Source of the DNA: Chloroflexota bacterium
GTDB taxonomy: Bacteria; Chloroflexota; Anaerolineae; 4572-78; J111
NCBI GenBank assembly: GCA_024277275.1
Contig: JAJRVO010000336.1
Span: 1 to 48,505, forward strand
Reading direction: 5' to 3'
DNA: 48,505 bases
The notes beneath the pieces are model-generated. The model saw only the letters and a program-made list of their open reading frames with translations. It did no database searches and had not been told where the DNA came from. Of this stretch, positions 1,990-48,080 are shown in pieces; within the stretch, counting starts at the first letter, position 1; the number at the start of each line of letters is the position of its first letter. The position numbers were made by a program, and so were the translations under genes.

Positions 1990-3090
1990 TTAAACCTCAA
2001 TCCGATTTGAATACGCAAAAAAGCCGGAGAAACGTTCATCGGCCTGCAATCTTTCCAGGTGCGCTTGAACCAGAGCGCGCACTCTTCTAATATTGTCCGC
2101 ATTTTGGAATACCTCGGTTTTACCCAACAGCGATAGTTTTACTTGTGTAAACGTGGGCGCGTCGCCTTGCATCAGCGCTCTGAAAATCTCGAACGTATTA
2201 AACACCTCTTCTTGCACGGCTGTGGATAGAATATTAGCGGAAACACCGGCTTGCTGTAGAGTTTTGCGCATACATTTTTCGCCGGCGCAGTTCTGGATAT
2301 CTACCTTGTCAAGCTGGTGGTGGATGAAATCAACCGGGTCAAATGGTTCCAAAAATATTTTAATATCCTGGCCGGTTGCCAGGGCGTAGAGCAGCAACAG
2401 ACCTATTTCAGTGGCGGCAGCTTTTGAGGCGGCTTCTGACATGATGGGCAGCAACAACACATCGGCTTCATGCTTAAATTCAGTCTCTATGGATAACAAG
2501 GTGCGCGTACTCATCGCTACGCCCAGGTGGTCAATACTACCGTAAGGGGTTTTCCACGCTTCAGCAAAAGCGCCTTCAGATAAATCCTTTACAGCCTGAC
2601 CGTCTGCCCGGTAGCTTGCGGTTAGCAAATCTTTCTTTTCTTGAAATCTGTCCGTATGCTGCCGGCAATAGGGGCCTCCCGATCCGCCAAGTATTACCCG
2701 CAGCGGATAGTTTTGACCTCGCCTGATTCTTTTTGCCAAAAAATCATCAAAGTTCAAGCCTTTTTGGCCGGCTATCATTTGGTGTTTAGCCGTCTGGCAG
2801 GCTAAAATAGCCAATTCCTGTAAATCATCGCCGCGATGGATTCGCAGGAATCGGTCCAGGTGTGGATTTTTTTCCAGATTTTCCAGGGACATCTCGACCA
2901 TCATATATTGAGCAATGGCCCCCGGTTCATTGAGACTGGTCAGCAAACTGTCTTCTATGGAGACGATGACCACCTGCCCTCTCAAAGCAGCCGAGGTCAA
3001 GGCCATACCGATTTCGGCAATTGAACCCAAACTACCATTCATCAACTCATTGTTTTCCAGACGAATGATGATTACCGAGGCCGTGGCCAT
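1990..3090 (-). CDS. Hypothetical protein (366 aa); weak resemblance to nucleoside 2-deoxyribosyltransferase-like Rossmann modules
   Basis: Long ORF. Segments VIIIRLENNELMNGSLGSIAEIGMA and ADVLLLPIMSEAASKAAATEIGLL resemble the hydrophobic strand plus S/T-x-x-E-x-G pattern of that fold. There is no obvious RBS, and the ATG lies one codon after the stop of the upstream same-frame ORF. Confidence 0.5.
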   Translation of the reverse strand: MATASVIIIRLENNELMNGSLGSIAEIGMALTSAALRGQVVIVSIEDSLLTSLNEPGAIAQYMMVEMSLENLEKNPHLDRFLRIHRGDDLQELAILACQTAKHQMIAGQKGLNFDDFLAKRIRRGQNYPLRVILGGSGGPYCRQHTDRFQEKKDLLTASYRADGQAVKDLSEGAFAEAWKTPYGSIDHLGVAMSTRTLLSIETEFKHEADVLLLPIMSEAASKAAATEIGLLLLYALATGQDIKIFLEPFDPVDFIHHQLDKVDIQNCAGEKCMRKTLQQAGVSANILSTAVQEEVFNTFEIFRALMQGDAPTFTQVKLSLLGKTEVFQNADNIRRVRALVQAHLERLQADERFSGFFAYSNRIEV

Positions 3091-3093
3091 AAT

Positions 3094-3339
3094 TTAGGCT
3101 TCAATGGCCATATATGATATATCCCAACCATCAATTTGAGGATCAAAGCCAATAACTCCCATACCTTGAAAGACATCCAAAAATTTATAGGCTTTTCTCC
3201 ACATTGCTGCGGTATGGGTTGACCCATACCAGCCTACCAGGTTCAAGAGGCCGGCTGGGGTTCTCTCCATGGTGTCTGCTCGTTGATTCCACGTGGCTGG
3301 AGTGATGATTACATCAGTTTTTGTTTTGTAGGGTGCCAT
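3094..3339 (-). CDS. Hypothetical protein (81 aa); possibly the N-terminal part of the downstream 366 aa ORF
   Basis: An AGGAGA RBS lies 9 nt upstream of the ATG at 3339. The ORF ends with TAA at 3096-3094, in the same frame as ORF 1990..3090. Confidence 0.45.
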   Translation of the reverse strand: MAPYKTKTDVIITPATWNQRADTMERTPAGLLNLVGWYGSTHTAAMWRKAYKFLDVFQGMGVIGFDPQIDGWDISYMAIEA

Positions 3340-13160: not shown

Positions 13161-16100
13161 GATTTGGATATATAGGTGGCAACTTGAGCTAGCTAATACT
13201 TCTCGGTTAAAATCGCAATGCCCTCCCAGTCTGGGGGGACGCCGTACTCAATAAAGTTCTCTACTCGACGTAGATATAGTTGCGACGCTTTATCTTCTGG
13301 ATTAACGGTTAAGGCTTTTTGGAAATACTCTTTTGCCTGGGCAAATTCCTGGCTGTGGTAGTGAAGAAGCCCTCGTTCAAAATCGGTTTGGGTCTGGAGC
13401 TTAAGTTCCCTGATTTCTTCCGGCTCGCCATCCAGAATTTCAAAAACTGACACTGCTTCCTCTTTGCCTTTTACTTTTACTTTGTCAAGAAAGCGGAAAT
13501 TATAACTTATCGGATTATTAAGGCTGAACATCATTTCTCCGCTGACAATAATGGATGACCCGTAAACTTTGGTTAACCCTTCCAGCCGGGCCGCCAGGTT
13601 GACAGCGTCTGATATTACCGTGCCTTCCATCCTTTCCGCTTCGCCAATAGTGCCTAACATAACCCGGCCTGTATGTAACCCTACGCCAATTGTAATGGGC
13701 TGATATCCGGAGTTAATCCGGTCAACATTGTAAATGGCTACGGCTTGCTGCATGGCAATGGCCGTTTTAATTGCGTCGTTGGTTTGACCGGGAAACAGGG
13801 CCATAATGGCATCGCCCATGTACTTGTCGATAAAGCCGTTATTGTCTCGAATAATGGGGCTGACCCGTCTAAGGTATGAGTTGATAAAGTTGAAGTTTTC
13901 TTGCGGGGTCATCTGTTAGGACAAGTTGGTAAAAGAGCGGATGTCGGAAAAAAGAACCGTCATCTCTTGCTGTATTTGGTCGCCTAATTTAACCTGCATA
14001 ATGCTGTCTTTGTTGAGCAGGTTCAGAATTTCGGGGGGCACAAAACGGCTGTAGGCTTTGGTCAACTCTACTTGATGGGCATAGAAACGGGCGTTCTCAA
14101 TAGAAATAGCGGCTTGAGAAGATAACAGGTTCAGCACTTCCAAGCGGTCGGGGGTAAAAGCCCCGGTGGTGAGGTTGTTTTCCAGGTAGAGGATGCCAAT
14201 GAGTTTGCCCTGGTTTAGCAGCGATATACACAATACCGATTTGGGTTGGGCAGCCACAACATACCTGTCGTGAGTAAATTGACCCTCGTGGGTCGCGTCG
14301 TTTAAAACCACGTTTTGCCGGCTGTGAATGACGTAATTAATAACGGCTCCCGGCAATATGGGCCTTCGCCCGTAGGCCGCCACCGTAAGCGGGATGGCTT
14401 GCAGGACAGTGACGTCATCCTTGCTGGCAGCCCCCGAGGCCTCAATTGACCAGGCTTCGCTTTCCTCCAGGAGCAAATACCCTATTTGCGCTCCTGCATT
14501 TTCAATAACAATTTCCATCATCTTTGATAGTAAGGTATTCAACACAATCTCGCTAGAGATAATCTGCGAGGCTTTGATGACGCTGGTTAAATCCAGGGCG
14601 CTTAGAGCGCCCGATGTGCTGTGAATGGTGGGCGTAAGGGGTATTGTGGATTTGGCCTCGAGACGCCGTGGCCGGATTTTGGCAAATAACTCCGGGTAAT
14701 GTGTCTCTAATTGCTTGATTTTACCGGAGGCTCCCCAACGCAAGTAAGCATAGTGAGCCTTATGCAGGTAAACGTGGGCTATCTCTGCTTGCCCTTTAGT
14801 TAGATAAAATCTTCCCGCCAGTTCGTAGGCCAGGGCTTCTTCATTTAAATATTGGTTTTCTTGAGCCAGAGCAATGGCCTGATCATAATATTCTCTGGCC
14901 GCCCCATCGGCGCCCAGAGCGCGGGCGTATTCGGCTTCTACCAGATAGAATTTGTGCAGGTGATTTACAGGGGCATGGTTGGCCCATTCCTTTAGCTTTT
15001 GCTGATTAGCGGTTACTTTGTCCAGTATAGGCTCTTGCTCAATTTGTTTCTCTTCAGGGGACTCTATGAGCAAAGCCAGATGAGCCAACGAGTCGTAAAA
15101 ATGGAAAACAGGCACAGATAGCATCGCGGTTACATCGTCCAAATGCTTTGCCGCTGCGGTTGCGTTTTTAACCGCTTGCGGGTATTCCTGAAACAGGTAA
15201 CAGAGGATAAGCCGGTTGAAATGTATGTCGAAAGCTATGTTGTTAGTTGTCTCATCAACCTGCAACGAATCGGGTTTTTCCTCATCGTGTAGGTTATTGC
15301 CTAAGCGGTACGGATGTTCAGTGTCCTCCATTAAATTTAAGACAACCTGCCGATAGATTTCATTGATTCGCAGGACTCGTTCTTGTTTAAGCTGTTTAAT
15401 CGACTCGCTGTGCAAGGCCATCTCCGGGGCAAGCTCGACCAGTTCCCGACCGGCCAGATAGGAATGAAGGCCATAGACAAAGATAGAACGAGCGGCATAT
15501 TCCAGGTCGCCGGTTTCCAGGGCGCTGCGGTATGCTTCTAACAGCGGGCTTAAGCTTGCTCTTACGGGTTTCTTCCAGTGGCTAACAAAGGTGTTGAGGC
15601 CAAACAGCATCTTGGCTTTAAGTTGTTGGGCATTTAACTGTTTTAGCAGCCTTAAAGCCGTTTGCCCAAATTGATGGCCGGCATCAATGTCGCCAATGCG
15701 CCCGCAGAGAATTAAACCATAAGTGACATACGCCAGGGTAGACTCGGGCGCATTGCCGTATTTTACTGAGAAGGCAACCATTTTAAATACAATTAGCGGT
15801 AACAGTCCGGGAATACCAAAAGAGGCCGCCGAGGAGACAATCGACAGGATTCGCATTGCGGCTAATCTGTAAGGGTCTGTCATTTCCGGCAGGGCTACTA
15901 AATCCTCCGGCTGTCTTCCGGCCAAAGCCAACTCTATTTCTTGTAGAGCCAGAGCAATATTCTCTTGACTCGGCTCCCGTGGAAAGCGTACCGCTAACAT
16001 TCTTAGTACGGGTAAGGCTGTGTCTATCACGTCTTGTAATTGATCCTGGGCAATGTAAGCCAGCATTTTTACTTCATAGACCTTTACTTTGTCCAGCAAG

Positions 16101-17637
16101 GTCTTGGCTTGTTGCAGCACAATTTCTGCAAAGCGCTCCATTTGCTCAAAGTCGGCGCATAGATAGGCTGTTTCCATTGCTTCTATATATAACAGCAACG
16201 ACAGGTTATATTGTCGCTCCCAACTGCCTGCTTCTTCACTGCCCTTGATGAGGGGGGATTGTGAGAGGTTTAAAAGTTCAATGCCGATATTCAGGTAATT
16301 TAATGCGGGTTGGTATGCCGCCGATGCTTTAGCTCTTTGACCCGCCAGCAGATTTAATTCTGCCAGTTCGTCCCATTCTGATTGCTCAACGCATATTACC
16401 CGGCCTAGATTTAGCTGGTTGACCAGATCAAATATTCGGTTTGCCCGCTTGTCTGGTAGCGTATGCCGTAGCAGCAGTTGCCCCACCTGCCAGTGGACAA
16501 TCTGTTTGTCTGTGTCGGAAATAAGCGAGTAAATGGCTTGCTGAACCCGGTCGTGGGCAAACTTGTATTCTGCCATAACCACGCTTTGATCATCTAATTC
16601 CGGGAATGGGTACGTTCTGTTTAAAGGCAGGATTAAGCATTCTGTGGTTGCCTCCCACAAATCAGCGGCTACATTTGCCGGGGGCTTTTGTGAGACAACT
16701 GCCAGAGTCTCTAAATCAAATTGATGGCCGATACAAGCGGCCAGTTTTAATGCTTCTTGGGCGTCTGGCGGTAACTTTTGCACTTTGGCGGCCATCAACT
16801 CAACCACATTATCTGTAATTTCCCGGGTTTGAATTTGCGCCAAATCCCATTGCCAGCTTCCGCGCTGATAGTCAAAGCTAATGAGCTTCTCAACATAGAG
16901 CGATTTCAAAAACTCGCCTATAAAGAAGGGATTGCCCCCCGTTTTGTCCAGCACTAATTCTGCCAGGGGAGCGACCTGTTCCGGCTGGTCATGGAGTGTG
17001 TCGGCCACTAGCCGGCTAACGTGGGATAAGGTCAACGGTGATAATTCGATGTTCTTAATTATTGCGCCGGTCTTTTTGATATCATCCAGTGTTAACAGCA
17101 ACGGATGAAGCCCACTCACTTCGTTATCTCGATAGGCTCCTATTAAAAACAGGCAGATGTTGTCGGAAGCAGTGGTCATTAACCGCTCAATTAACTTCAG
17201 CGATGCTTCGTCTGCCCACTGTAAATCATCAAGAAAAATGACCAGGGGGTGTTTGGGCCGGGCAAAGACCTTGATGAAGTTTTGAAACGCTAAATTAAAA
17301 CGATTTTGGGCCTCTACCGGCCTTAATTCGGGCGCTGGGGGTTGTGGGCCGATGATTAATTCAATTTCGGGAATGACCTCAAGAATTACCTGCCCATTTG
17401 GTCCAAGTGCGGCCAGTAGTTTTTGTTGCCAGGCGGCAATTTGGGTTTCGTTTTCGGTTAACAATTGCTGCGCCAGCGAGTGAAAGGCCTGAATAAGCGA
17501 AACATAAGGAACATTGCGCTGAAACTGGTCAAACTTGCCGGAGATAAAATAGCCGCCTTGACGGGCTACTTGCTTGTGCAATTCGTGAACCAGGGCCGAT
17601 TTGCCAATGCCTACGTATCCGGTTACCAAAGCCATGT

Positions 17638-17711
17638 CGATTTTCGATTTTCGATTTTCGATTTTGGATTGAGAGGAAACTTCCCTCCCTTTGGGGGGGA
17701 TTGAGGGGGGG
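17638..17711. repeat. (CGATTTT)x4 heptamer run plus a G-rich GATTGAG(A/G)GG repeat, inside the kinase/STAND CDS
   Basis: cgattttcgattttcgattttcgattttggattgagagg...gggggggattgaggggggg, translated as PPSIPPKGREVSSQSKIENRKSKID. Confidence 0.85.
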
Positions 17712-18250
17712 CTAATTTGCTCAAAAGCTGTTGACAAGATTTCAAGCTCTTGCTCTCGTCCGTACAACTTTTGCGGAATTTGTAACCTGTCAGAGATATC
17801 TTGTTGACCTAGTGGAAAAAGGTCGACTCGTTCCAGGGTTTGCCATTGCTGTAAACACGCTTCTAAATCTGCTTTTAGTCCATACGCCGATTGGTAACGC
17901 TCTTCTGCATTTTTGGACATCAGCTTCATTACTATGTCCGAGAGGGCGGGGGGCAGGGCGGGTTTGACCTTATGTGGCGATGTGGGCTGTTTGGCGATGT
18001 GGCTGTGTACCAGTTCCAGCGGGTCGTTGCTTTCAAACGGCAGTTGTCCGGTTAGTAGTTCATAAAAGGTCACGCCCAGCGAATAAAAATCTGCCCGATA
18101 ATCCACCGCCCGGTTCATTCGTCCGGTTTGCTCCGGTGAAATGTAGGCCAGCGTGCCTTTCAATACGCTTGGAGTATGCAGGGTTGGATTCTCGTGCGAG
18201 AATACCGTGGAAATGCCGAAGTCAATGATTTTGACCGGCCACTGCTGATT

Positions 18251-18329
18251 TACGATTTTAGATTTATGATTTGCGATTTCTGATGGTTGGTCCAAACCGG
18301 AAATCGTAAATCCAAAATCTGAAATCGTG
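18251..18329. repeat. Heptamer-periodic palindrome (NNGATTT)x4 / loop / (AAATCNN)x4, inside the kinase catalytic domain CDS
   Basis: tacgattttagatttatgatttgcgatttc ... ggaaatcgtaaatccaaaatctgaaatcgtg, translated in frame as DTISDFGFTISGLDQPSEIANHKSKIV. Confidence 0.9.
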
Positions 18330-19211
18330 TCTGGGGGAATAATTACAATATTTGACGGGTTAAGGTCTTGGTGGATAACGTATCGCTGATGAATTTGCCC
18401 CACAATTTCTGTGACTCTGATGGTCAGGGATAAAAAATCAGCCAGGTTCAATTTGCCGGCTAATCCTAACTGCGCCAGAGATTTTCCGCCAAAATCCTCC
18501 AGCACTATCACCCACCGCTGCTGGTTTTTTTCTAAAGCTAAAGCTTTAACCACGCCTTCCAGGTCTAAGCTGCGGATGATTTCGTACTCGGTTTTAAGCC
18601 GGGCAATCTGCTCTGGCGAGGGGTAGGTCGCTTTTAAGGTTTTTAAAATAACCGGCTGGTTATCCGCCCGCTGGCGCCCGCGATAGATCAACGAGTTAGC
18701 GCTTTCGTGGATTAGATCGCCAAACTGATAACCTGAGGTTGTGATCATTGTTGCTCTGCTCATTGCTCACTCTAAAAAGACAAACCTTGCTCCTGGTGTA
18801 TAACAATTCCAAACAAAACCCAGACCTGATAGATTTTTGACATAATCTTAGCAAGTTGCTGTATTGCTATTGTAAATTGTGTTGAAATGGCCGGTTTTTT
18901 GGAAACCTGTCAGGTCTCATAGCCATGTTTGGAATTGTTGCCTATTGTATCACAAAAATCGACCAAAGACATTTTGGATAGCGCTAAACAAGCAGTGAGG
19001 GGTTCGGTGTCAGAAAATGAGTCTTTAACCAAAATAAAAACCCCGCCAATGCGGAGCTTTTGAATGAGAATAATGTAGCGTTTTAGGCTTTTACATCGAT
19101 AAAAAATTATCGAGCAAAGGTGCAGGGTGGTAAAGCTGCAAATTACAGAACCTGCTACCCTGCAACCTTGCCACCTTGTTTTCCAAGCGAAGTCTTGGAA
19201 AAATTGGATTC

Positions 19212-21246: not shown

Positions 21247-21412
21247 TGATCAGTAATCGGTGATCAGTAATCGGTAGTCAGTAATCAGTAATCGGTAGTC
21301 AGTAATCAGTAATCGGTAGTCAGTAATCAGTAATCGGTAGTCAGTAATCAGTAATCGGTAGTCAGTAATCAGTAATTGTAGTCAACTGATCACTGGTCAC
21401 TGGTTACTGATT
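21247..21412. repeat. Tandem 14/21-bp units built from AGTAATC-type heptamers, with a complementary right arm
   Basis: (tgatcagtaatcgg)x2 and (tagtcagtaatcagtaatcgg)x4-5 are followed by caactgatcactggtcactggttactgattgcc. The stop codon and last codons of the upstream reductase gene lie within the right arm. Confidence 0.95.
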
Positions 21413-24668: not shown

Positions 24669-24816
24669 AGTAATCAGTAATCAGTAATCAGTAATCAGTA
24701 ATCAGTAATCAGTAATCAGTAATCAGTAATCAGTGACCAGTTTTTACTCGTTACTAATTACCAATTACCAATTACCAATTACCAATTACCAATTACTGAT
24801 TACTAATAACCGATAA
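24669..24816. repeat. Heptamer-periodic palindrome: (AGTAATC)x9 / loop / (ATTACCA)x5 and variants
   Basis: Direct reading. It fills the whole ftsL-ftsI spacer. Confidence 0.95.
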
Positions 24817-32772: not shown

Positions 32773-33811
32773 AGCGGGCGTTAAGCCGGAACTTTTATGG
32801 ATTGGCAGCATTGGCGGCATGGAACAGGCCCTGGTAGAACGGGCCGGTTTAAAAATTGAATTAATATCGGCGGCGGGCCTGCGGGGTAGAAACCCGGTAG
32901 CCGCCCTGGGTAGTTTGTGGACGTTAAGCCGGGGATACCGTCAGAGCCGGCGCCTTATCCGGCGCTTTCAACCGGATGCCCTTTTTGTTACGGGGGGCTA
33001 CGTGTGCGTTCCCATCACCCTGGCAGCCTGGCGGTCCGGCGTGCCGATTATCATTTACCTGCCGGATATTGAGCCGGGTTTGGCTATAAAATTTTTGGCT
33101 CGATTTGCCGGCCGTGTGGCCGTCACTACCGAGGAGACCCGTAAATTCTTTCGACCCGGTTTGGCGGTAGTCACGGGGTATCCGGTCAGGCCGGAGTTGC
33201 GTGTCGACCCGGCAGATAAAACCGGAAAGGCCGCAGCCCGGCAACAACTGGGATTGAACAGCTCTTTGCCGGTCCTGTTGGTTTTTGGCGGTAGTCGCGG
33301 GGCGCGCAGCATCAACCGGGCGCTGGCCGGTCAGATAGAAGCCTATCTTGAGGTTTGTCAGGTGGTCCACGTTAGCGGCAAATTGGATGCGGAGTGGGCG
33401 CTGGCGCGTCGAGAAGAATTGCCGCCGGATTTACGGGCGCGTTATCACGTCTCGGCCTACTTGCACGCAGAAATGACCGCGGCTCTATTGGCTGCCGACC
33501 TGGTTATTTCAAGGGCCGGGGCCAGCGTAATGGGCGAGTTTCCGGCGGTGGGGTTGCCCGCAATTTTAGCGCCTTATCCCTACGCCGGCACGCATCAGGC
33601 TTTAAACGCAAATTATTTGGCTCAACATCAAGCCGCCGTAGTTATTGACGACGCTGATTTAGAGCGAGACTTAAAGGATGTAACCATCAATCTGATAACG
33701 GACAAAGAGAAATTACAGGCAATGGGGCGCGCCGGCCAAACGCTGGCTAAACCCGATGCCGCAGCGCGTTTGGCTCAAGAGATTTTGGAGGTAAAGACTC
33801 ATGGAACTTAA
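32684..33811 (+). CDS. murG: UDP-N-acetylglucosamine--N-acetylmuramyl-(pentapeptide) pyrophosphoryl-undecaprenol N-acetylglucosamine transferase
   Basis: A GTG at 32684 (or the ATG at 32693) is preceded by GAGGGA. It reads VRLMVSGGGTGGHVYPALA ... LVFGGSRGARSIN. The ORF-track start at 32582 lies inside ftsW. Confidence 0.85.
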   Translation: MRLMVSGGGTGGHVYPALAALQSLNRQCAEAGVKPELLWIGSIGGMEQALVERAGLKIELISAAGLRGRNPVAALGSLWTLSRGYRQSRRLIRRFQPDALFVTGGYVCVPITLAAWRSGVPIIIYLPDIEPGLAIKFLARFAGRVAVTTEETRKFFRPGLAVVTGYPVRPELRVDPADKTGKAAARQQLGLNSSLPVLLVFGGSRGARSINRALAGQIEAYLEVCQVVHVSGKLDAEWALARREELPPDLRARYHVSAYLHAEMTAALLAADLVISRAGASVMGEFPAVGLPAILAPYPYAGTHQALNANYLAQHQAAVVIDDADLERDLKDVTINLITDKEKLQAMGRAGQTLAKPDAAARLAQEILEVKTHGT

Positions 33812-34583
33812 CTGGACGGTGTTAACTTATTTTATCATCGGTCTTTTTGCCCTCTCTGGTTTTTTTAAGGGCTGGTGGAAAGAGGCAGTTGTGACGGTAT
33901 TCTTGGCTGTACTTATATTTTTCTTGCAGAACCCCGACCTGGCCCAGGTGGCTATTGATATTTTTAATAACATTTTAGCCTCCGTTTGGGACTTTATCCC
34001 CAACTCTCTACTGCCTACAGTCGATTCGACCATGCGAACCGTCTTTGCAGTTGATACAGGAGGCGGCGCGTTGCAATTTGATGCCGGTGATCCCAGCACC
34101 TGGTTGATGGTTTTAATTGTGGTTATTGCGGTTGCCATCTTGCTGGGGCGCTCTACGCTGCCTGGCGGAATTATACAACACGGCTTTCGTTATGCGCCTA
34201 CAGCTACAGGCAGTGTGCTAGGCGGGTTGATTGGAGGGCTAAATGGGTTTCTCATCCTTAGCCTGGTCAGAGAATATCTGGATGGTCGTAACTTGCCCAT
34301 TGGCGATAGCCCCGCAACGGAGATTGCCTTTGCAGGGGGGGGACAAGTGGTTGGCATGGCTTCGTCAGGCGTTGCTATAAGGACAACACAAATGCCCGAT
34401 TTTACAATTCTGGATAGTTTTTTGCCCTGGGTAATTGTTGGCGTCGGCATTTTGATCTTTTTTGCTGTTTTAAGAAACCGGGTTGGCTTGCATAGCAACA
34501 AAGGTTTCAGAAGGATAAATTACAAAGTACCTTATGGATACAGGGGAGTTGTTGTCATGCCTCCTCCCCCACCCAAGAAATAA
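33801..34583 (+). CDS. CvpA-family-like integral membrane protein, paralog 1
   Basis: 260 aa. It has NWTVLTYFIIGLFALSGFFKGWWKEAV (CvpA-like N-terminal GF-x-G-x-x-x-E) and VLGGLIGGLNGFLILSLV. The start overlaps the murG stop by 11 nt. Confidence 0.55.
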   Translation: MELNWTVLTYFIIGLFALSGFFKGWWKEAVVTVFLAVLIFFLQNPDLAQVAIDIFNNILASVWDFIPNSLLPTVDSTMRTVFAVDTGGGALQFDAGDPSTWLMVLIVVIAVAILLGRSTLPGGIIQHGFRYAPTATGSVLGGLIGGLNGFLILSLVREYLDGRNLPIGDSPATEIAFAGGGQVVGMASSGVAIRTTQMPDFTILDSFLPWVIVGVGILIFFAVLRNRVGLHSNKGFRRINYKVPYGYRGVVVMPPPPPKK

Positions 34584-34639: not shown

Positions 34640-35422
34640 ATGGCAATTAATTGGACAATCATCGCTTACTTTGTTGTTGGTTATTTTGTCATCTCAGGGT
34701 TTTCCAGGGGATGGTGGAAAGAAGCCGTCACCACAGTTGTGCTGGCCGCCCTTATCTTTTTTCTGCAAAATCCCACGTGGGCCGAGAGCTTTATAGATTT
34801 TTCTAATGGCCTGATTGCTACAATCTGGCGCTATATTCCGGGCAACATTGCGCAGGTTATCAATAATATTTTGGGAGGCATTTTTGCAACCGGCGCCAAC
34901 AGTAGTGGCGTCTTTCAGATTGACGCCACCAATCCGGAAACGTGGATGACAATCTTGCTTTTGGTTGTTGGAGCAGCCATCTTATTTGGTCAAGTTAATT
35001 TTGGACATCAACCAACAAGTATTGGAAAAGTATTGGGCGGGCTGGTAGGAGGGTTCAATGGGTTTCTTATTCTTGGTCTGGTTAGAGAATACCTGGATGG
35101 ACGCGCTTTGCCGGGGCAAGAAGTGCATAATTCAACCATAACTTTAGCTGGAGGTAGCGCCTTTGGCCCCGCTTCAACAGATGTTTCTATTCAGGCCACC
35201 GGTTTACCCAATTATACCATACTGGATAGCGTGATACCCTGGGTGGTGATAGGCATTGGCCTTGTAATGCTAATTTCAGTTCTTAAAACCAGGGTTGGTA
35301 TAGCCAGTAATAAAGATGGCAGCAAAATAGCGGTTAAGATTCCGCCTTTCTACCAAAGCCCCGTACCACGAGGTAGGGTCCAGCCAAATCCGCCTGTAAC
35401 GCCGGTGAGAATAGTGGAGTAG
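34640..35422 (+). CDS. CvpA-family-like integral membrane protein, paralog 2
   Basis: 260 aa, collinear with paralog 1: NWTIIAYFVVGYFVISGFSRGWWKEAV, VLGGLVGGFNGFLILGLVREYLDGRALP. Confidence 0.55.
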   Translation: MAINWTIIAYFVVGYFVISGFSRGWWKEAVTTVVLAALIFFLQNPTWAESFIDFSNGLIATIWRYIPGNIAQVINNILGGIFATGANSSGVFQIDATNPETWMTILLLVVGAAILFGQVNFGHQPTSIGKVLGGLVGGFNGFLILGLVREYLDGRALPGQEVHNSTITLAGGSAFGPASTDVSIQATGLPNYTILDSVIPWVVIGIGLVMLISVLKTRVGIASNKDGSKIAVKIPPFYQSPVPRGRVQPNPPVTPVRIVE

Positions 35423-35475: not shown

Positions 35476-35569
35476 GGTAATTAGTAAATGGTAAATAGTA
35501 ATTAGCCCAAATTACTTAAGTGAAGCGGCTTACTAATTACCAATTACTATTTACTAATTACCAATTACC
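35476..35569. repeat. Heptamer-periodic palindrome (TAGTAAT/ATTACTA type)
   Basis: ggtaattagtaaatggtaaatagtaattag ... ttactaattaccaattactatttactaattaccaattacc. Confidence 0.9.
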
Positions 35570-37137: not shown

Positions 37138-37191
37138 GGTAATTAGTAAATAGTAATTGGTTAAATTACTATTTACTAATTACCTAATTAC
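37138..37191. repeat. Heptamer-periodic palindrome (TAGTAAT type)
   Basis: ggtaattagtaaatagtaattgg ttaa attactatttactaattacctaattac. Confidence 0.9.
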
Positions 37192-39526: not shown

Positions 39527-39700
39527 TCAGTAATTAGTAATTAGTAAATAGTAAATAGTAGTCGGTAGCTGGTGGTTAGTAGCTGGTGGCTGGCGGTTAG
39601 TAGCTGGTAGCTGGTAGCTGGTGGTTAGTAGCAGGTGGTTGGTAGTGGCGAGTAGCGTCTGCTAACGACCAACAGCTATCAGCTACCAGCTGCCAGCTAA
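39527..39700. repeat. About 25 consecutive heptamer units (TAGTAAT drifting to TGGTAGC) with a complementary right arm
   Basis: cagtaat tagtaat tagtaaa tagtaaa tagtagt cggtagc tggtggt tagtagc ... accaaca gctatca gctacca gctgcca gcta. It begins directly after the ddl stop. Confidence 0.95.
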
Positions 39701-39713
39701 TAGGAAGTTAACT

Positions 39714-40610
39714 ATGTTTGGCGCAAAAAAGCGTCGTCGCAAGCGACGTTCGGAACTGCGACTGGGGGCGCAGGCAATCAATTATGAAACAACCGCGGCC
39801 GGGCCGCCTATATCGCTGATCCCGATGCTGAAATTTTGGCAGCGATGGGGGGCCAGGATAAGCGGTATATTGGCGCTGGCTTTTTTAGGCTGGGTTTTTT
39901 ACACGCTCTTTGCCACCCCTTCATTTTATGTGTATGGAGCCAGCATCAAGGGTAATGTGGCTGTATCGACCCGTGAAATCTATATCGTCAGCGGCATCGA
40001 TAGCCAGAACATTTTTTGGGTCAATCCGGCAGAAGTCAGCGAAAGAATAGCCGCTCTGCCCAATATAAAATCAGCCGAAGTGTCGATTGCTTTGCCGTCG
40101 CGGGTTGAAATTGAGGTTGTTGAGCGTCGCCCCCAACTGTTGTGGCAAATTGGTGAAACAGTCTGGTGGGTCGACCAGGAGGGAATAATTGTTCCCCCCA
40201 GAGCCAATGTGGATGGCATGTTGCGCATCATTGACGACGACCGGCAGCCGGTAGAGGTTGGCTATCAAATTGACCCTACTATTATTGAGGGGGCGCAGGC
40301 GTTGCGTATTTTGGTCCCCGATGTATCAATTATTCGCCATACCCGCGCCCAGGGCTTAATTGTAGCCACACCCGACGGCTGGCCGGTATACCTGGGAAAC
40401 GGCAGCGAAATGCGGGCCAAATTGATTGTGCTAAGTTCGCTGCTGGCTAACTTGCGGACAAATGATATAACGCCGTCTTACATTGACTTGCGTAATCCAC
40501 TGAGGCCCGTTTACAAAGAAATGCCCGTTATCAGGATAGCGCCGCCAAAACAAACACCCGGTCAAACCTTTCCATCACAACCGGCAGCGCCATCGTATAG
40601 AAGGCCCTAA
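39714..40610 (+). CDS. ftsQ: Cell division protein FtsQ/DivIB-like (TM helix plus POTRA)
   Basis: 298 aa with a basic N-terminus and the TM helix ILALAFLGWVFYTLF. A POTRA-like segment FYVYGASIKGNVAVSTREIYIVSGI...IEVVERRPQLLW follows. It lies in the position between ddl and ftsA. Confidence 0.7.
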   Translation: MFGAKKRRRKRRSELRLGAQAINYETTAAGPPISLIPMLKFWQRWGARISGILALAFLGWVFYTLFATPSFYVYGASIKGNVAVSTREIYIVSGIDSQNIFWVNPAEVSERIAALPNIKSAEVSIALPSRVEIEVVERRPQLLWQIGETVWWVDQEGIIVPPRANVDGMLRIIDDDRQPVEVGYQIDPTIIEGAQALRILVPDVSIIRHTRAQGLIVATPDGWPVYLGNGSEMRAKLIVLSSLLANLRTNDITPSYIDLRNPLRPVYKEMPVIRIAPPKQTPGQTFPSQPAAPSYRRP

Positions 40611-40866: not shown

Positions 40867-41128
40867 GCGCCTAATTTTAAGGAAAAACACAAGATGTTGT
40901 GGTATAAACTATTGCAAAATACTATATCTTGTGGTACACTACAATTTACATCTTACCGGCTTTATGAAAATGCAAGTTGGTGCGGCTTTAAAAATTGTGG
41001 GCAAGATGCTGGAGGCAAAAGGCAAAAAAGAAAAAGTTTGGACCTTTGCTCCCTCCATTCTCTTACTGCCGCCGGAGTATCCATTTTGAATAACTTGCAG
41101 CAGGCACACAAAAGGGGAGGAGGCTAGT

Positions 41129-42352
41129 GTGGATCGCACTGTTGTTGCCTTAGACATAGGCACTACAAAAATCTGCACGCTAGTTGCCGAAGTCGGCCCT
41201 CCCCCGGAAGAGAGCTTGCGTGTTGTAGGTGTGGGTACTGTGCCTTCAAGGGGAATCCGTAAAGGGGTGGTGGTAAATGTCAACGAAGTTGCAGCCGCCA
41301 TTGTCGACTCGGTTCGCCTGGCGGAGCGTACCTCTGGATATGAAATTGCCAGCGCCTATGTTGGGTTAGCCGGAGCGCACATTAACGCCGTAAATAGCCG
41401 GGGCGTGGTAGCCATTAGCCGAGGCGAACGGGGTATCCGAACTGTAGATGTTGAAAGGGCTTTGGAATCTGCACGGGCCATCGATATTCCCCACAATCGG
41501 GAGATTCTGCATATTATCCCGCGCGGCTTTACCGTAGATGGCGACGACGGGGTACGCGACCCGGTTGGGATGCAAGGCTACCGGCTGGAGGTTGAAGCCC
41601 ATATTGTTACCGGAGCTACTTCGTCCATTAAAAACCTTATCAGGTGCGTGCAGAGTTGTGGGGTTCAAATTGACGCTTTGGTTTTGGAACCGTTGGCCTC
41701 TGGCGAAGCGGTTTTAACCGACATTTAGCGCGAGATGGGGGTAGTACTGGTTGATATCGGCGGCGGCACTACAGACATCGCCATATTTATAGAAGGCGCC
41801 ATTTGGCACGCCGTTGTTTTACCCACCGGCGGCGAACAATTGACCAACGATGTGGCCGTAGGCTTACGCACCCCCTACAACACGGCAGAAGATATTAAGA
41901 TTAAATACGGGCACGCCCTGCCCCAGGCCGTAATGCTTGAAGAGATTGTTAAGGCCGAAGTGTTTGGCGAAGAAGGTCAACAGCAAATCCCTCGCCAGTT
42001 TTTGGCAGAAATTGTGGGAGCGCGCGCCGAAGAGATTTTTGAGCTGGTCTTAAAAGAGATTAAGCGGAGCGGGTACGATGGACTTTTGCCGGCAGGCATT
42101 GTTTTGTGCGGAGGCACCGCCGAATTACCCGGTATCCGCGATTTGGCCCGCGATGTTATGGGGCTACCGGCCCGTATCGGCGAGCCGCAAAATTTGCGCG
42201 GGTTGGTCGACACGCTACACAGCCCGGCTTTTGCTACCACCGTGGGGTTATTAGAATGGGGCGTAATGCACGACTTGCCCAAACCGGTTCAGCAATCCGC
42301 AAACCACAGTTTGAAGGTGCCGACTTGGTTAAAAGCGTTTTTGCCGGGGTAA
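41129..42352 (+). pseudogene. ftsA: Cell division protein FtsA, interrupted by an in-frame TAG at 41726-41728
   Basis: A GTG start is preceded by GGGGAGGAGG. It reads VALDIGTTKICTLVAE...LEPLASGEAVLTDI, then TAG, then in the same frame REMGVVLVDIGGGTTDIAIF...VLCGGTAELPGI. Together these make one actin-fold FtsA of about 407 codons. Confidence 0.9.
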
Positions 42353-42446
42353 TTGCCGGTAATCAGTAACCGGTAATTAGTAATCAGTAATTAGTGAATA
42401 GTTGACTACAATTACCAATTACTAATTACTAATTACTGGTTACTAG
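42348..42446. repeat. Heptamer-periodic palindrome (CAGTAAT/ATTACTA type) starting at the ftsA stop codon
   Basis: ggtaattgccggtaatcagtaaccggtaattagtaatcagtaattagtgaatag ... attaccaattactaattactaattactggttactag. Confidence 0.9.
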
Positions 42447-42565
42447 TACACGGCGGCGTAAATCCTTCGGTAGTTTATGGAGTGAAAAAGTGCACTTTTT
42501 CACTCCATAAACTAAGCAACGCGCTGCTTGTAACTACCGAAAGACTTCCGCCAAGTTGTACTAGT
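42442..42565. repeat. 124-bp imperfect palindrome upstream of ftsZ with a perfect 38-bp core
   Basis: The core TTTATGGAGTGAAAAAGTGCACTTTTTCACTCCATAAA (42474-42511) is self-complementary. The outer arms are ACTAGTACA...CCTTCGGTAG and CTACCGAAAG...TGTACTAGT. Confidence 0.9.
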
Positions 42566-42607
42566 TATTGATAATATAAGGTTTATCCTATCTAATGGGA
42601 GAGTGAC

Positions 42608-43783
42608 ATGTCCAAAAATAGTAGAAATGATAATTACGCAATGCAGCCCGAAAACTTTGCCCAAATTAAAGTTGTCGGTGTGGGTGGCGGCGGAAGCAAC
42701 GCCGTTAACCGCATGATAGCCGAAGGTTTGCGCGGGGTTGATTTTATTGCCGTTAATACCGATGCCCAGGCGCTATTAATGAGCGACGCGCCTCAGCGGA
42801 TTCGTATTGGCGACAAATTGACCCGTGGTTTGGGCGCCGGCGGTAATCCTGAAGTCGGTCATAAAGCCGCCGAAGAATCTTCTGATGATTTAGAAGAAAC
42901 CATTCGCGGGGCTGATATGGTTTTTGTAACCTGCGGTATGGGCGGCGGAACCGGCACCGGGGCTGCGCCCATCATTGCCGAAACTGCTAAAAACACGGGC
43001 GCTCTAACCATTGGCGTTGTGACTCGCCCCTTTAGCTTTGAGGGAAGCCGTCGCCAAAATCTGGCAATGGAGGGGATTGAAACGCTTAAAGAAAAAGTTG
43101 ACACGTTAATTGTCATCCCCAATGACCGCTTGCTGGAAATTGTCGACAAAAAAGCCAGTATGACCGAGGCCTTCCGTACCGCCGACGACGTACTGCGTCA
43201 GGGTATTCAGGGGATTTCTGAGCTTATCACTGTCCCCGGCTTAATTAACCTGGACTTTGCCGATGTTCGCTCTATTATGAGCGGCGGCGGCTCGTCGCTA
43301 ATGTCTGTTGGCATTGCCACCGGCGAGAACCGGGCTGTTGACGCGGCTGAAATCGCCATCTCTTCCTCGTTGCTGGATGTAACCATTGACGGCGCTCAGG
43401 GTCTTTTGTTTAACATTACCAGCGGCCCCAGCCTGAGTTTGTTTGAAGTCAATGAAGCGGCTGAAATTATCAGAAGAAAAGCGCACCCCGATGCCAATAT
43501 CATCTTTGGCGCGGTTATTGACGAGAGCCTGGATGAAGAATTGCGAATCACCTTAATTGCTACCGGCTTTGATGCTGCTGCGGTTAAGCGCAAGCCCTAT
43601 GTTGCCGGGAAAAGATTAAAAGACACCGATTCCAAAACCATCGCTTTCCCCCAACAAAAAGTCAGAGAAACTTACGCCCGCGAAGAGCAAAAACTTCCTC
43701 ACCGGGAACCGGCTTACGACCCGGAGGATTTGGAAGTGCCCACCTTCCTGCGCAAACGCATCCAAAAGCGTCGAGTTTCTTAA
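42608..43783 (+). CDS. ftsZ: Cell division GTPase FtsZ
   Basis: 391 aa with [33 protein letters not shown] (tubulin signature) and a C-terminal [10 protein letters not shown] peptide. Confidence 0.95.
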
Positions 43784-44061: not shown

Positions 44062-45941
44062 TTAATTGGAAGGAGCAATAACATCTGAAGCGGTGACTGA
44101 AGTTGGCACCGATTCTACGGCGGGCGTGGCAACCCCAGCCGGTTCAAACTCAACTTCGCGGATGGTCAGGGTATCGTAGTTAACGTGGGCCATAGATTCG
44201 TCAAACGTTTCGGTAAAAAAGCCAACCTCGCCGCCGGCGTAATCAGCATCGCTTACCTGGATGACCGGCTGCCCATTGATGTGGAAGATAAAATCAGAGC
44301 CGTTGGTATCCACGCGGAGGGTGTCTGCGTTGTTCTCGCTAAGAGCGTGTTTCTTAAAGACCGCAGAGGTTTTCTGCGAGACATTTTTAAGCGAATTTGC
44401 CCCGGTTATGAACCTGACTTACAGTTAAAATCGGCTTCGGAAACCTCTGCGGTCTGGTCTACACGATTTAAGAAACACGCTCTAAGACCCTGGATAGAGT
44501 CGTCAGCGCCCTCTGCCAGAACTTCTAACCCGGCGGCGGAACTTTTAAGCGCGTACCAGTTTTTGCTTCGGGGCGAGACGGTGAAGGCGTAAAATTGCTC
44601 GCCTGTGCGGCGAACAACCAGGCCATAGCGGAAGTCGCCGATATCGGTGCCGGTTTTGGCTACAAAAATATTGCTTTCAACGGTAACGTTGTCAAAACCC
44701 GGACCTCGGGAAATTAACCCTCTCTCGCCGGGGGCGTGAACTTCAACGTGGTAAAAATCGGGAGGATGGTAGCCAAAAAGGCCGCTTTCTGCTTCCAGCT
44801 CCGGCCAACCGCTGGTGGGGTTGGTGAAGTTGTCCTCAAACAACACCGTTTCAGTCTCGACAACCGTAACCTCATCTGCCGCGCAGCGAACGCCGGATGT
44901 AGCAGACATTGTAGGCACGCTTGGATCGCCCTGAAGGCGGTAGGCCATATCCTGGACAAAACCGTGCGTGCCGCCGCGCAAAACCCGATTGCCCTCTTCA
45001 ACCGGAGCATAGGGGTCTCCCACCCACTCCCAAACGTTGCCGGCCATATCAAAAACGCCAAAGGGGCTGCGGTTGGCAACGATGCTGCCCACGGCATATG
45101 TGCCGGCCCGGGGGAGTTCAACATCGCGCTCGGTATCTCCCCAGGGGTATGCCAGGCCATGACGACCTCGGGCCGCAGCCTCCCATTCGGCTTCGGTGGG
45201 CAGGCGTTTTCCAGCCCATTGGCAATAAGCGGTAGCTATGTCCCAGGTAATGCCCTCAACCGGGTGGTTTTCTTTTTCGGCCGGAATTGTTCCTGTGGAC
45301 CAGCTTACAGGCGGCTCACGGTCGCCTTCAGCCAAAAATTCCGCATATTGAGCGTTGGTCGCCTCGTATTGATCAATCCAAAACTCGGTCAGTTCAATTT
45401 GCTGTGTTGGGGCGTACTCTGTGCCGGTTACATCCGAGCCGATAATATACGAGTCGGCATGGATTTTAACCATCTGTTTAGACAAGGGCAGGTTAACTGA
45501 GGCCAGGGCTTGCTCTCCCGGCAACGATGGAGATTGCACAAACCGAGAAACCGCATACACGGCCCCCAGGCCAATTAAAAATATAAAAATGGCAACCCCA
45601 ATTCCAACCGACCACAGGAGCGTGTTATTTTTCTTGACAGGTTGGACCGCTTGCATCACGGCAGAGGTGGGTTCAGGCGTTGACGCAATTGGCGTTGACC
45701 TTATCCCTGATGGGCCGGTATCTTGCCGGCTATTTACTCGCGTTTTCTTTTTAGGCGACGGAATAGTCATTTCTTGGAGACTTCGCTTGGCGTCTCTCAA
45801 CCCCGTGGCCATATAGGCAGCAGTTTGGTAACGGTCGGCTGGAGATTTTGCCAGCGCTTTTTGAATGACTTCAACTAATTTATCGGGGGCGTCGCTTTCC
45901 AGGTTTTTTATAGCGACACAGTTTGCAAAGCCCCATAAATG
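44062..45941 (-). pseudogene. Decayed Ser/Thr kinase / FGE-sulfatase (SUMF1-like) gene: 5-prime truncated and disrupted near the 3-prime end by a 138-bp MITE
   Basis: The frame upstream of the ATG at 45812 encodes AIKNLESDAPDKLVEVIQKALAKSPADRYQTAAYMATGL, the C-terminal lobe of a protein kinase domain only, bounded by TGA at 45944-42. A TM helix follows, then the FGE domain (FWIDQYEATNAQY, HPVEGITWD, RLPTEAEWE, NVWEWV, RVLRGG). The C-terminal beta-rich domain is split between ORFs 44406..45812 and 44062..44313, which lie in different frames. Confidence 0.75.
44344..44481. mobile_element. 138-bp MITE with roughly 35-bp imperfect terminal inverted repeats and a 5-bp target-site duplication (CTAAG)
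   Basis: CTAAG occurs at 44339-43 and at 44482-86. The left end AGCGTGTTTCTTAAAGACCGCAGAGGTTT pairs with the right end AAACCTCTGCGGTCT(ggtctacacga)TTTAAGAAACACGCT. Removing the element plus one CTAAG joins ...DDSIQGL to SENNADTLRVDTNGSDFIFHINGQ... in frame. Confidence 0.75.
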
Positions 45942-46439: not shown

Positions 46440-48080
46440 ATGCTGGGAGCTTACTTTTCTCCATTGGCGCCGGCGGCTGTTTTGCTGTTGAGCGTCTTCA
46501 TTTTGCCTGTTGTTATTTTGCCTGCCCATCGGGGGATACGTAATTTTGGCGCTTCGGGGTTGGTGGGAGTAGCTTTTTTGAGCCTGCTGGGTATTCGCCT
46601 CACCCCCGGCAGCGACGCTATGGGCGCGGGACTGGAACTACTCTCCGGCTGGAACTTTTCCACGGCCGAGTCCGCCGCGGCGCTAACAGTCAGGGCCGAC
46701 ACGTTGAGCCTGCCCTTTCTCATTGTAACCTTGCTGGTTCTCCTGGCCGTGACGCTACTTCGCTCCGATGCTGCCGCAGCCGAGAACGGTCATTGGACTC
46801 AAGTATCCGGCTGGCTGTTGATGGGGGCGGGCGCTTGCCTGCTGTTTGTCTCGGCTAATGGCTTGACCCAACTTTATGCGGTTATGGTTTTTGATACCTT
46901 TGCCGCGTTTTATTGGCTGGGACGAGGCCACCGTAATTTGGGCGTCGCTCGGTTGTTTTTGGGGATATTCACTGCCGCCGGGTTGATATTGGCTACGTTA
47001 ACCCCAACAATTGGAGCTGTACCCGGCCTGCTGTTGTTGGGCCTGGCTCTGTGGTTGCGATTGGGACTGTACCCCTTTATGGAAGCCACAGCCCACGCCC
47101 CCTGGCGCAGCGACGAGCGTTTGGCCTATCTAAGCCTGTCTCTGACCGTGGGAATGTATCTGGTTATCAGAGTGGTCAGCGAGCCTCTGCCGGAGATTAT
47201 CCGCTGGCTGACCGTCGTCGCCATGCTGTTGGGCGGTTTATTGACCTGGTTGACCGGGTCGTCTCTTCCCCTTGCCGGAGATGCAGGCAAGCCGGTGGGA
47301 GAAAGACGCGCTTCATTGCTGGCCTGGTTGGTTTTTACCGAAGCCCTGCTCATCTTGGCGGCACGGCCATTGGCTACCGGTACGGCCATCGCTTTTGCTG
47401 TTGGCCTCATCTTGAGTCTGGTTGCTCTGTGGGTTACGCCAGCCCTGGGACGGCCTCGTCTTAGCGAGGGGGCCTGGTCATGGCCCTATCTGCCCGCCGT
47501 TGTCGCCACCCTAACCTTGATTGGCGCGCCCCTTTTGCTGGGCTTGCCGGCCCGAGTCGCCATTTACCAATCGCTGTTTCGTATAGACAAATTAACTATT
47601 GTTTTGATTGTCATCCTGGCTGAAGGGTTAGCTTTGAGCGGGTTGATTCGCTACTGGCTAATTTTGGGACAAGGCAATGAAGCCGGCGGTCGTCGCTCTG
47701 TGGTAGGGATTGTGGCGATGGTTCCATTTTTGACGCCCGGCTTGGCTCCCTTTATTTTATCGGCCATAACTGAAATTGAGTTGTCTTTGGGCGGAGTGGA
47801 GTGGTCATTTGGCTTATTGGGTATTAACATTGCCATTGTGTTAGGGGCTGTTGGCTTAGGTTATTTTAGGGGCCAAATCATCGACCGGCTAGAAATTCCG
47901 GCTGAAACTATGGTTAGACTCATCCGCTTGAATTGGCTGCTCCGCTGGGGGGAGTCGCGCCTTAACCAAATTAGTAAGGTAGCGCTCCGGGTTCGGGTGA
48001 CTCTGGAAGGACAGCATTATTTGGGTTGGGCAGTTTTTACAGCGTTAGTAGGAGCCTTAATTATTCTTTTAAGAACGTAG
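46440..48080 (+). CDS. Polytopic membrane protein of unknown function (546 aa)
   Basis: A long ORF with at least 12 hydrophobic helices. The N-terminal region (RADTLSLPFLIVTLLVLLAV) shows only a vague resemblance to NuoL/N/MrpD-type antiporter-like subunits. Confidence 0.5.
   Translation: MLGAYFSPLAPAAVLLLSVFILPVVILPAHRGIRNFGASGLVGVAFLSLLGIRLTPGSDAMGAGLELLSGWNFSTAESAAALTVRADTLSLPFLIVTLLVLLAVTLLRSDAAAAENGHWTQVSGWLLMGAGACLLFVSANGLTQLYAVMVFDTFAAFYWLGRGHRNLGVARLFLGIFTAAGLILATLTPTIGAVPGLLLLGLALWLRLGLYPFMEATAHAPWRSDERLAYLSLSLTVGMYLVIRVVSEPLPEIIRWLTVVAMLLGGLLTWLTGSSLPLAGDAGKPVGERRASLLAWLVFTEALLILAARPLATGTAIAFAVGLILSLVALWVTPALGRPRLSEGAWSWPYLPAVVATLTLIGAPLLLGLPARVAIYQSLFRIDKLTIVLIVILAEGLALSGLIRYWLILGQGNEAGGRRSVVGIVAMVPFLTPGLAPFILSAITEIELSLGGVEWSFGLLGINIAIVLGAVGLGYFRGQIIDRLEIPAETMVRLIRLNWLLRWGESRLNQISKVALRVRVTLEGQHYLGWAVFTALVGALIILLRT

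Follow-up and report, generated by a model that had tools for sequence, protein, structure and literature searches.

A probable private GAG-to-TAG lesion at an invariant glutamate codon of ftsA on a Chloroflexota metagenome contig

We analyzed the cell-division gene ftsA on contig JAJRVO010000336.1 of a Chloroflexota bacterium (assembly GCA_024277275.1). The window, i.e., the whole stretch of DNA that was analyzed, comprises 48,505 nucleotides (nt). An in-frame TAG at 41726–41728 (+) occupies codon 200 and cuts the 407-codon ftsA into halves of 199 and 205 amino acids (aa). This stop is very probably a private, non-programmed single-base lesion, in which GAG became TAG at the invariant Glu200; ftsA is otherwise intact and strongly constrained. 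It is one of three in-frame stops found on the contig, all of which replace glutamate.

An in-frame TAG divides one continuous FtsA

A first-pass annotation of this DNA, made from the letters alone, had proposed that an in-frame TAG divides one continuous FtsA. This was confirmed: both segments lie in the same frame, ftsA contains no indels, and reading through the stop gives a joined product of exactly 407 residues. The features of the locus are as follows.

41114 to 41123, forward strand: Shine–Dalgarno-like sequence GGGGAGGAGG preceding the GTG start codon of ftsA (sequence)
41129 to 41725, forward strand: N-terminal half of ftsA, codons 1–199, subdomain 1A plus the SHS2 (1C) insert (Pfam)
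41726 to 41728, forward strand: in-frame TAG replacing an invariant Glu, GAG in relatives (protein and DNA alignment)
41729 to 41734, forward strand: codons CGC GAG, Arg201 and Glu202, between the TAG and the next ATG (sequence)
41735 to 42352, forward strand: C-terminal half of ftsA, codons 203–407, with the DIGGGTTD phosphate-2 motif, subdomains 2A and 2B and the WLKAFLPG tail (Pfam)

The upstream open reading frame (ORF), which with its stop spans 41129–41728 (+) and encodes 199 aa, has a GTG start and a strong ribosome-binding site (RBS), as the annotation had read it. FtsA proteins of relatives likewise begin with V-D/G-R-T-V-V-A-L-D-I-G-T. Pfam assigned SHS2_FTSA to residues 82–161 (E = 8.5e-29) and FtsA to residues 6–188 of this half. 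The downstream ORF (205 aa) opens at the ATG two codons past the TAG (Met203), and the phosphate-2 motif D-I-G-G-G-T-T-D follows directly: VLVDIGGGTTDIAIF. It matches FtsA at residues 4–171 (E = 2e-36) as well as MreB_Mbl, and its C-terminal tail, ending in KVPTWLKAFLPG, is conserved. The 20 nt 5' of ATG 41735 contain no Shine–Dalgarno-like sequence (best match to GGAGG, 2 of 5), in agreement with the earlier view that the second half lacks a separate RBS and starts at this ATG. With Glu placed at the stop, the residues around codon 200 read ...AVLTDI-E-REMGVVLVDIGGGTTD.

The gene is identified as ftsA by its actin-fold domains, its SHS2 (1C) insert, its full-length alignment to FtsA chains in the PDB and its position between ftsQ and ftsZ; the TAG at codon 200 interrupts what would be a single frame of approximately 400–420 codons. 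The joined product aligns end to end with the FtsA proteins of E. coli, Vibrio and Xenorhabdus (7q6d, 7q6f and 7q6g), S. aureus (3wqt) and T. maritima (1e4f and 4a2a), with E values from 1e-77 to 1e-15. In these alignments, the stop falls on the Glu of L-T-E-D-E-R-E-L-G-V, 8–9 residues before the phosphate-2 motif D-I-G-G-G-T. All solved FtsA proteins are single chains and none is split at or near codon 200, unlike the ftsA studied here. An AlphaFold2 model of the closest intact relative was unusable for placing codon 200 (mean predicted local distance difference test score, 44.8).

The gene lies near the end of a complete division and cell wall (dcw) cluster, whose order is mraW–ftsL/DivIC-like–ftsI–murE–mraY–murD–ftsW–murG–(two unknown membrane ORFs)–murC–murB–ddl–ftsQ–ftsA–ftsZ. 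All dcw members other than ftsA showed full-length domain coverage in Pfam. Within the cluster, ftsA is the only place where two long coding-like segments share a frame across a single stop. The TAG is not a chance ORF artefact.

Relatives carry glutamate at codon 200

We compared FtsA with its 120 best database relatives, which are at most 90% identical and are annotated as FtsA of Anaerolineae or Chloroflexota metagenome-assembled genomes (MAGs). All 120 are uninterrupted and nearly all are 407 aa long, the modal length and also the read-through length here. Codon 200 is Glu in 120 of 120, and its flanks are nearly as constant (R201 in 119, E202 in 117 and M203 in 120). Among 19 motif-bearing DNA loci, the codon is GAG in 17 and GAA in 2; 13 of these loci are metagenome contigs that were matched with the codon left as NNN, and all carry Glu. 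Among the 98 fetched loci that cover codon 200, 97 have Glu and one has a stop (locus L103, a selected locus discussed below); that is, a stop occurs in 0 of the 97 unselected loci. Glu also occupies this position in the solved gammaproteobacterial chains (PDB 7q6d, 7q6g and 7q6f). Because relatives carry Glu encoded by GAG, the TAG is one G-to-T step, at codon position 1, from GAG, which bears out the earlier statement that the stop replaces a usually acidic residue and needs a single change. One further protein that clusters with the N-terminal half (P0292) was uninformative: it comes from a different relative, whose 1.25-kb contig diverges upstream of codon 200.

The comparison with the closest relatives that the annotation had proposed therefore found GAG or Glu in relatives and no conservation of the split halves in the clade, so that the stop is a private lesion and not a programmed or conserved feature. 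The opposite reading would be a conserved, adaptive division of FtsA into two genes, or a clade-wide reassignment of TAG. Both halves are called as genes, and a search with the C-terminal half found products that open exactly at the equivalent of Met203, at least 16 of them, in diverse lineages. Five of the six inspected products of this kind come from contigs that start at or within 20 nt of that ATG (L098–L102 and L104). The Met203 ATG lies at position 1–3 of L098, L099, L100, L101 and L104 and at position 21 of L102. The onset of the ultra-conserved DIGGGTTD stretch seems to be a point where assemblies break. On the many independent public contigs that start at the Met203 ATG or a few bases 5' of it, gene callers emit MGVV...DIGGGTTD half-proteins, which resemble a split FtsA in protein databases.

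One locus, L103 (GCA_024276255.1, JAJRXO010000271.1), has a true TAA at the same codon (positions 184–195), with the junction ...EAILTRE-(stop)-RDMGVVVADIGGG; it is approximately 51% identical and lies on an unrelated, GC-rich MAG contig (60% G+C). It is weak evidence for a mutational hotspot because the search selects this architecture in a very large database and because a G-to-T change is the only one-step route to a stop at codon 200. As a side observation, the accession of locus L041 (JAJRZR...), whose murB has an internal TAG, is close to that of L103 (JAJRXO...). The two halves are not maintained as separate genes across the clade, the downstream half has no independent RBS, and TAG ends 10 of the 32 ordinary genes of the window. 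A conserved split is thus refuted at the level of the available relatives, and we consider this reading, including clade-wide TAG reassignment, almost certainly wrong.

Two further glutamate-to-stop changes lie on the same contig

We scanned the contig for single stops flanked in the same frame by long coding-like segments; an ATG was not required. The scan yielded two further in-frame stops, giving three in the 13,390 codons of the 48.5-kb contig.

13916 to 13918, reverse strand: second stop, TAA in a class III adenylate/guanylate cyclase domain (domain match and alignment)
3094 to 3096, reverse strand: third stop, TAA between an 81-codon ORF and a 366-aa ORF (relative alignment)

The second stop cuts an 1855-codon Ser/Thr-kinase/AAA_16/GAF/cyclase/TPR gene into ORFs at 13919–18763 (1615 aa) and 13193–13912 (239 aa), both on the reverse strand. 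The junction reads ...TVLFSDIRSFTNLS-(stop)-QMTPQENF, with an ATG one codon past the stop. On its own, the 239-aa ORF matches the cyclase domain from model position 28 with 46.6 bits; with an X in place of the stop, the Guanylate_cyc match extends across it (model 6–177 of 183) and rises to 73.5 bits. All 119 aligned relatives carry Glu at the stop position, within the motif F-T-x-L-S-E.

The third stop separates ORFs at 3097–3339 (81 codons, with an AGGAG RBS) and 1990–3090 (366 aa), both on the reverse strand. The junction reads ...DISYMAIEA-(stop)-IMATASVIIIRLEN, again with an ATG one codon past the stop. The best relative (P0241) is 449 aa long, i.e., 81 + 1 + 1 + 366, and matches the 366-aa ORF from its own residue 83; several other relatives align likewise. 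The closest relatives carry Glu at the stop (TEAEVMA, IEAEVMA, TEAEIMA and IEAEVLA) compared with I-E-A-(stop)-I-M-A here. A weak Nuc_deoxyri_tr2 match spans the junction (E = 0.006), so that the N-terminus weakly resembles a nucleoside 2-deoxyribosyltransferase. A fourth same-frame junction, TAA 1990–1992 between the 366-aa ORF and a PfkB kinase, was set aside as the normal border between two genes: at this point the relatives of the upstream protein terminate, a GAGG stands 8 nt 5' of the TTG, and the PfkB motif begins at residue 12.

All three stops are UAA or UAG (UAR; one UAG and two UAA), and each is one coding-strand G-to-T step from a Glu codon. The contexts are TAG CGC GAG ATG in ftsA, TAA CAG ATG in the cyclase gene and TAA ATT ATG in the gene for the 449-aa protein, so that the stop-to-start distances are +6, +3 and +3 nt, respectively; the ATG is conserved and in frame in each case. 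All six fragments are recorded as called genes from a single NCBI contig and are singletons; therefore, the three stops belong to the deposited sequence. An exact look-up of the two ftsA halves, FtsZ and FtsQ yielded no independent copy. The first-pass annotation had treated the TAG as an event specific to ftsA. This view did not hold because two sister Glu-to-UAR stops occur in unrelated genes, and the cause should act across the contig or genome and not on ftsA.

We then considered how unusual this trio is, given the codon content of the window. Under uniform single-base mutation, 16% of nonsense paths start from Glu (three of three, 0.004); if only G:C-to-T:A changes occur, the share is 54% (three of three, 0.16). 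A stop results from only 6.7% of random G:C-to-T:A changes, and three stops therefore imply approximately 45 such changes in approximately 40 kb of coding sequence. Glu codons with an ATG within the next three codons make up 6.1% here; 3 of 49 ATG-adjacent Glu codons were hit compared with 0 of 709 others (Fisher p = 2.5e-4). The scan did not require an ATG, and thus the adjacency is not a detection bias.

For a background, we used approximately 123,500 aligned residues of murC, murB, ddl, ftsQ, ftsA and ftsZ in approximately 100 public loci. This set contains three to four convincing internal stops: Tyr77 to TAG in L089, one in murC of L080, one in murB of L041 and the selected L103. None of the unselected stops derives from Glu and none adjoins an ATG. 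The nonsense density here is approximately 7 times the background (Poisson p of approximately 0.01). The 84%-identical relative L089 (JGI Ga0073934_10039320) carries an unrelated in-frame TAG at the conserved Tyr77 of FtsA, with no ATG after it, and exemplifies the sporadic nonsense background of metagenome contigs.

The lesion appears young in a gene under strong purifying selection

We assessed decay at conserved columns, defined as those at least 97% conserved among relatives. FtsA showed no departure at 189 such columns (96 in the N-terminal half and 93 in the C-terminal half), whereas other family members average 0.9 and 0.5 departures in the two halves, respectively. Against eight relatives, the ratio of nonsynonymous to synonymous substitution rates (dN/dS) was 0.02–0.07 for the N-terminal half and 0.03–0.10 for the C-terminal half, the same range as among the relatives; dS is saturated (>1), so that a short recent relaxation would go unseen. 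Neither half has evolved without selection for any measurable time, and the lesion appears to be young. The extra lesions and relaxed selection of a decaying pseudogene are absent from ftsA. The neighboring genes are intact as well.

42608 to 43783, forward strand: ftsZ, intact, full-length Pfam Tubulin and FtsZ_C matches, 0 departures at 89 conserved columns
39714 to 40610, forward strand: ftsQ, intact, Pfam POTRA_1 and FtsQ_DivIB_C, 2 departures at 96 conserved columns

Neither of the ftsQ departures is of the G-to-T type. The full-length Pfam coverage of ftsZ upholds the earlier remark that an intact ftsZ stands beside the split ftsA.

An ordinary nonsense allele or incipient pseudogene shares with this case a private single-base sense-to-stop change in a gene that otherwise resembles its orthologues. 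The ftsA studied here differs in showing zero further decay and in having two lesions of the same class on its contig; in addition, random pseudogenization does not predict a conserved in-frame ATG just past all three stops. Bacillus subtilis tolerates the loss of ftsA when SepF is present. The TAG may be a real null allele with no useful restart, with FtsZ tethered by SepF or a second FtsA-like protein and the other two stops hitting dispensable genes. The first product does lose the whole ATP-binding half together with the C-terminal tail, a restart product would not contain the invariant E-R-E, and ftsZ itself is intact. Nevertheless, ftsA has been under strong purifying selection in this lineage up to the present, domain annotation found no sepF or second ftsA within the 48.5-kb window, and the Glu-only, ATG-adjacent pattern would be left unexplained. 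We therefore regard a null allele as improbable.

Real variants or consensus errors

Only the raw reads would separate a real mutation from a consensus error. We consider it somewhat more likely that the three changes are real population variants than that they are consensus errors, because the contig shows no other error signature and because the ATG adjacency resembles a survivorship filter. No frameshift was found in any gene of the contig, so this is not a raw long-read assembly, and the other genes are intact with full Pfam coverage. G-to-T-type departures number 0 at the 374 conserved columns of FtsA, FtsZ and FtsQ, where approximately 0.8 would be expected, which makes this a weak test.

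If the bases were errors of consensus or base calling, the true codons would be GAG in ftsA and GAA in the two other genes, and ftsA would be ordinary and intact. Every relative has Glu, both ftsA halves are pristine and the fragments are singletons of one contig, all of which this explanation accommodates. Three lesions of one class (coding-strand G to T) point to a single cause, technical or chemical, and oxidative damage classically produces G-to-T changes (PMC3616734). Sporadic internal stops do exist in public metagenome contigs, such as those in L089 (Tyr77 to TAG) and in murB of L041. However, the approximately 45 errors implied in 40 kb of coding sequence are far above the normal consensus error of short reads, the conserved columns show no G-to-T-type departure (the weak test above), no gene is frameshifted, and random errors would leave the ATG one to two codons past all three stops unexplained (p = 2.5e-4). 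Library artefacts caused by 8-oxoguanine share the substitution class of the three stops; they occur at low allele fractions (<10–20%) and mostly in a CCG/CGG context, changing CCG to CAG (PMC3616734). The sites here are T-G-A, C-G-A and C-G-A and stand in the consensus, and artefacts with such allele fractions and context should not reach a consensus. Overall, we consider consensus error less likely than real variants but more plausible than a null allele.

Termination and reinitiation may follow the stops

The reading that we tentatively prefer is that the stops are real variants and that translation terminates and restarts at each of them. Translation begun at GTG 41129 would stop at UAG 41726, yielding a 199-aa fragment comprising most of subdomains 1A and 1C. 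A fraction of the ribosomes may then reinitiate at AUG 41735, 6 nt downstream, without a Shine–Dalgarno sequence. The restart product would be a fragment of 205 aa carrying the phosphate-2 loop, subdomains 2A and 2B and the C-terminal W-L-K-A-F-L-P-G tail. Continued translation would shield the 3' half of the mRNA and may avoid polarity on ftsZ, as expected from general knowledge of Rho-dependent polarity. Full-length FtsA would arise only via rare readthrough. The same reasoning would apply to the cyclase gene (restart at +3 nt, split inside the catalytic domain) and to the gene for the 449-aa protein (+3 nt). In E. coli, a C after the stop (TAG-C or TAA-C) is among the weaker termination contexts, and slight readthrough is possible.

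All three stops lie only a few nt 5' of a candidate restart codon on the same transcript. In E. coli reporters, termination–reinitiation is 30–95% efficient at +2 nt and is largely lost by approximately +38 nt (PMC10666635). The distances of +6, +3 and +3 nt lie within this range, which makes a restart without a Shine–Dalgarno sequence plausible. The earlier assumption that only a truncated N-terminal half is made is consequently unsupported, given a conserved ATG 6 nt 3' of the stop and within reinitiation distance (PMC10666635). Known cases of coupling by termination–reinitiation and of restart polypeptides share these short distances and the dispensability of a Shine–Dalgarno sequence. Natural pairs are conserved gene pairs that usually overlap by 4 or 1 nt; unlike them, the junctions here are unconserved and cut single-domain folds.

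Several points weigh against this preferred reading. The ATG-adjacency pattern was noticed after the fact, and an error at the three bases is possible. Each fragment is known from one contig only, and three majority-frequency nonsense alleles among 32 genes are many for a free-living lineage with dN/dS below 0.1. Four-fold sites show no long-term G:C-to-T:A bias (3 of 12 private changes, as in relatives), and a long-term mutator signature at these sites was accordingly rejected. None of the three restart ATGs has a Shine–Dalgarno sequence, two of the stops replace an invariant Glu, and the cyclase is split inside its catalytic domain. In ftsA, a restart at ATG 41735 would delete the invariant E200, R201 and E202, Arg201 and Glu202 being absent from both products along with the residue at the stop. 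A working two-piece FtsA is doubtful because both pieces would be without these three residues.

Possible suppression by a glutamate-inserting tRNA

The stops might instead be tolerated through decoding. If the organism has a natural ochre-type suppressor tRNA(Glu) whose anticodon is UUA, UAA and UAG would be partly decoded as Glu, Glu-to-UAR changes would be almost silent, and full-length FtsA would be made. All in-frame stops are UAR, which an anticodon starting with U can read, and none is TGA. All three replace Glu (probability 0.004 if mutation is uniform and 0.16 if it is purely G:C-to-T:A), two of them at invariant positions that should tolerate no other residue, and ftsA shows no decay. 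UAR encodes Glu in eukaryotes such as Blastocrithidia (PMC12153298).

The use of stops in the window argues against this explanation. The 32 ordinary genes end with TAA in 16 cases, TAG in 10 and TGA in 6; that is, UAR ends 26 of 32 (81%) and TGA is the rarest. TGA back-ups after UAR-terminated genes are few and not enriched, and ftsA itself ends at a TAA in the same place as its relatives. On these grounds, a general reassignment of TAG or UAR was rejected. The in-frame stops are likewise unconserved among relatives (Glu in 120 of 120 proteins and 97 of 98 loci for ftsA and in 119 of 119 for the cyclase), and UAR is not depleted as a terminator. Scans of the window for tRNAs and Rfam families found no tRNA gene and no Rfam family. 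A suppressor would also leave the ATG adjacency unexplained. No stop-to-Glu code in bacteria was reported among more than 250,000 screened genomes (PMC8629427), and our literature search found no precedent for readthrough of ftsA or for UAR read as Glu in bacteria.

The UAR = Glu codes of peritrich ciliates and of Blastocrithidia nonstop, in which UAA is both Glu and stop, share with this contig the in-frame UAA or UAG at conserved Glu positions (PMC12153298). Those codes are eukaryotic and nuclear, with genome-wide in-frame UAR and dedicated tRNAs, whereas UAR ends 81% of genes here and in-frame cases number 3 in 13,390 codons. It is quite improbable that the stops are read by such a suppressor. 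We give a similarly low standing to the wider proposal that the bacterium tolerates Glu-to-UAR changes either through an ochre-type suppressor or through reinitiation that yields working two-piece proteins. If true, the suppressor branch would amount to an ambiguous code, with UAR as both stop and Glu, and would be the first in bacteria.

Other features of the contig

Heptamer tandem repeats (TAATTAC, TGATTAC, CAATTAC and their complements) form inverted arrays and long hairpins in the dcw intergenic spacers, with 40 matches compared with 0.4 expected. They lie at 21365, 24670–24810, 26688, 35477–35568, 37139–37183, 39530–39557 and 42373–42443. The ftsA–ftsZ spacer (42350–42610) folds at -98 kcal/mol (z = -10). 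These repeats presumably resemble the short tandemly repeated repetitive (STRR) heptamer sequences of cyanobacteria. In the ftsQ–ftsA spacer, a non-coding block at 40873–40952 is approximately 90–95% identical to that of relative L097, whose ftsA coding sequence is only approximately 77% identical; a simple sigma-70 promoter scan did not flag this block. Relatives call a 75–88-aa ORF in this spacer.

Two tandem paralogous predicted membrane proteins of 260 aa (33801–34583 and 34640–35422) lie between murG and murC; they are 46% identical and match no Pfam family. In the PfkB-family kinase ORF at 670–1986 (-), an 18-nt tandem repeat at 1777–1909 (7.4 copies, 98% identity) encodes (SSQQGR)x7, inserted just past the N-terminal CIVAGHICLDVIP motif of the PfkB carbohydrate kinase. 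A 546-aa ORF at 46440–48080 has no Pfam match and lies downstream of an FGE-sulfatase-domain protein (44406–45812, -).

Implications

As biology, the TAG is most likely an ordinary private lesion, i.e., an invariant Glu codon altered either by a recent nonsense mutation or by a consensus error. Taken alone, such a private nonsense codon is nothing unusual for an ftsA from a metagenome; the case warns mainly against reading biology into a single MAG base and flags assembly quality. What goes beyond the trivial is the trio of Glu-to-UAR changes in constrained genes, two of them on invariant residues and each before a conserved AUG. If the bases are wrong, they would represent an unusual context-specific consensus error and six spurious gene calls, which are already in public protein collections. 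If the bases are real, the contig may, as the less likely outcome, hint at Glu-inserting suppression in bacteria; otherwise, it would provide a natural test case of nonsense tolerance through restart, with a possible two-piece FtsA split at the 1A/2A hinge.

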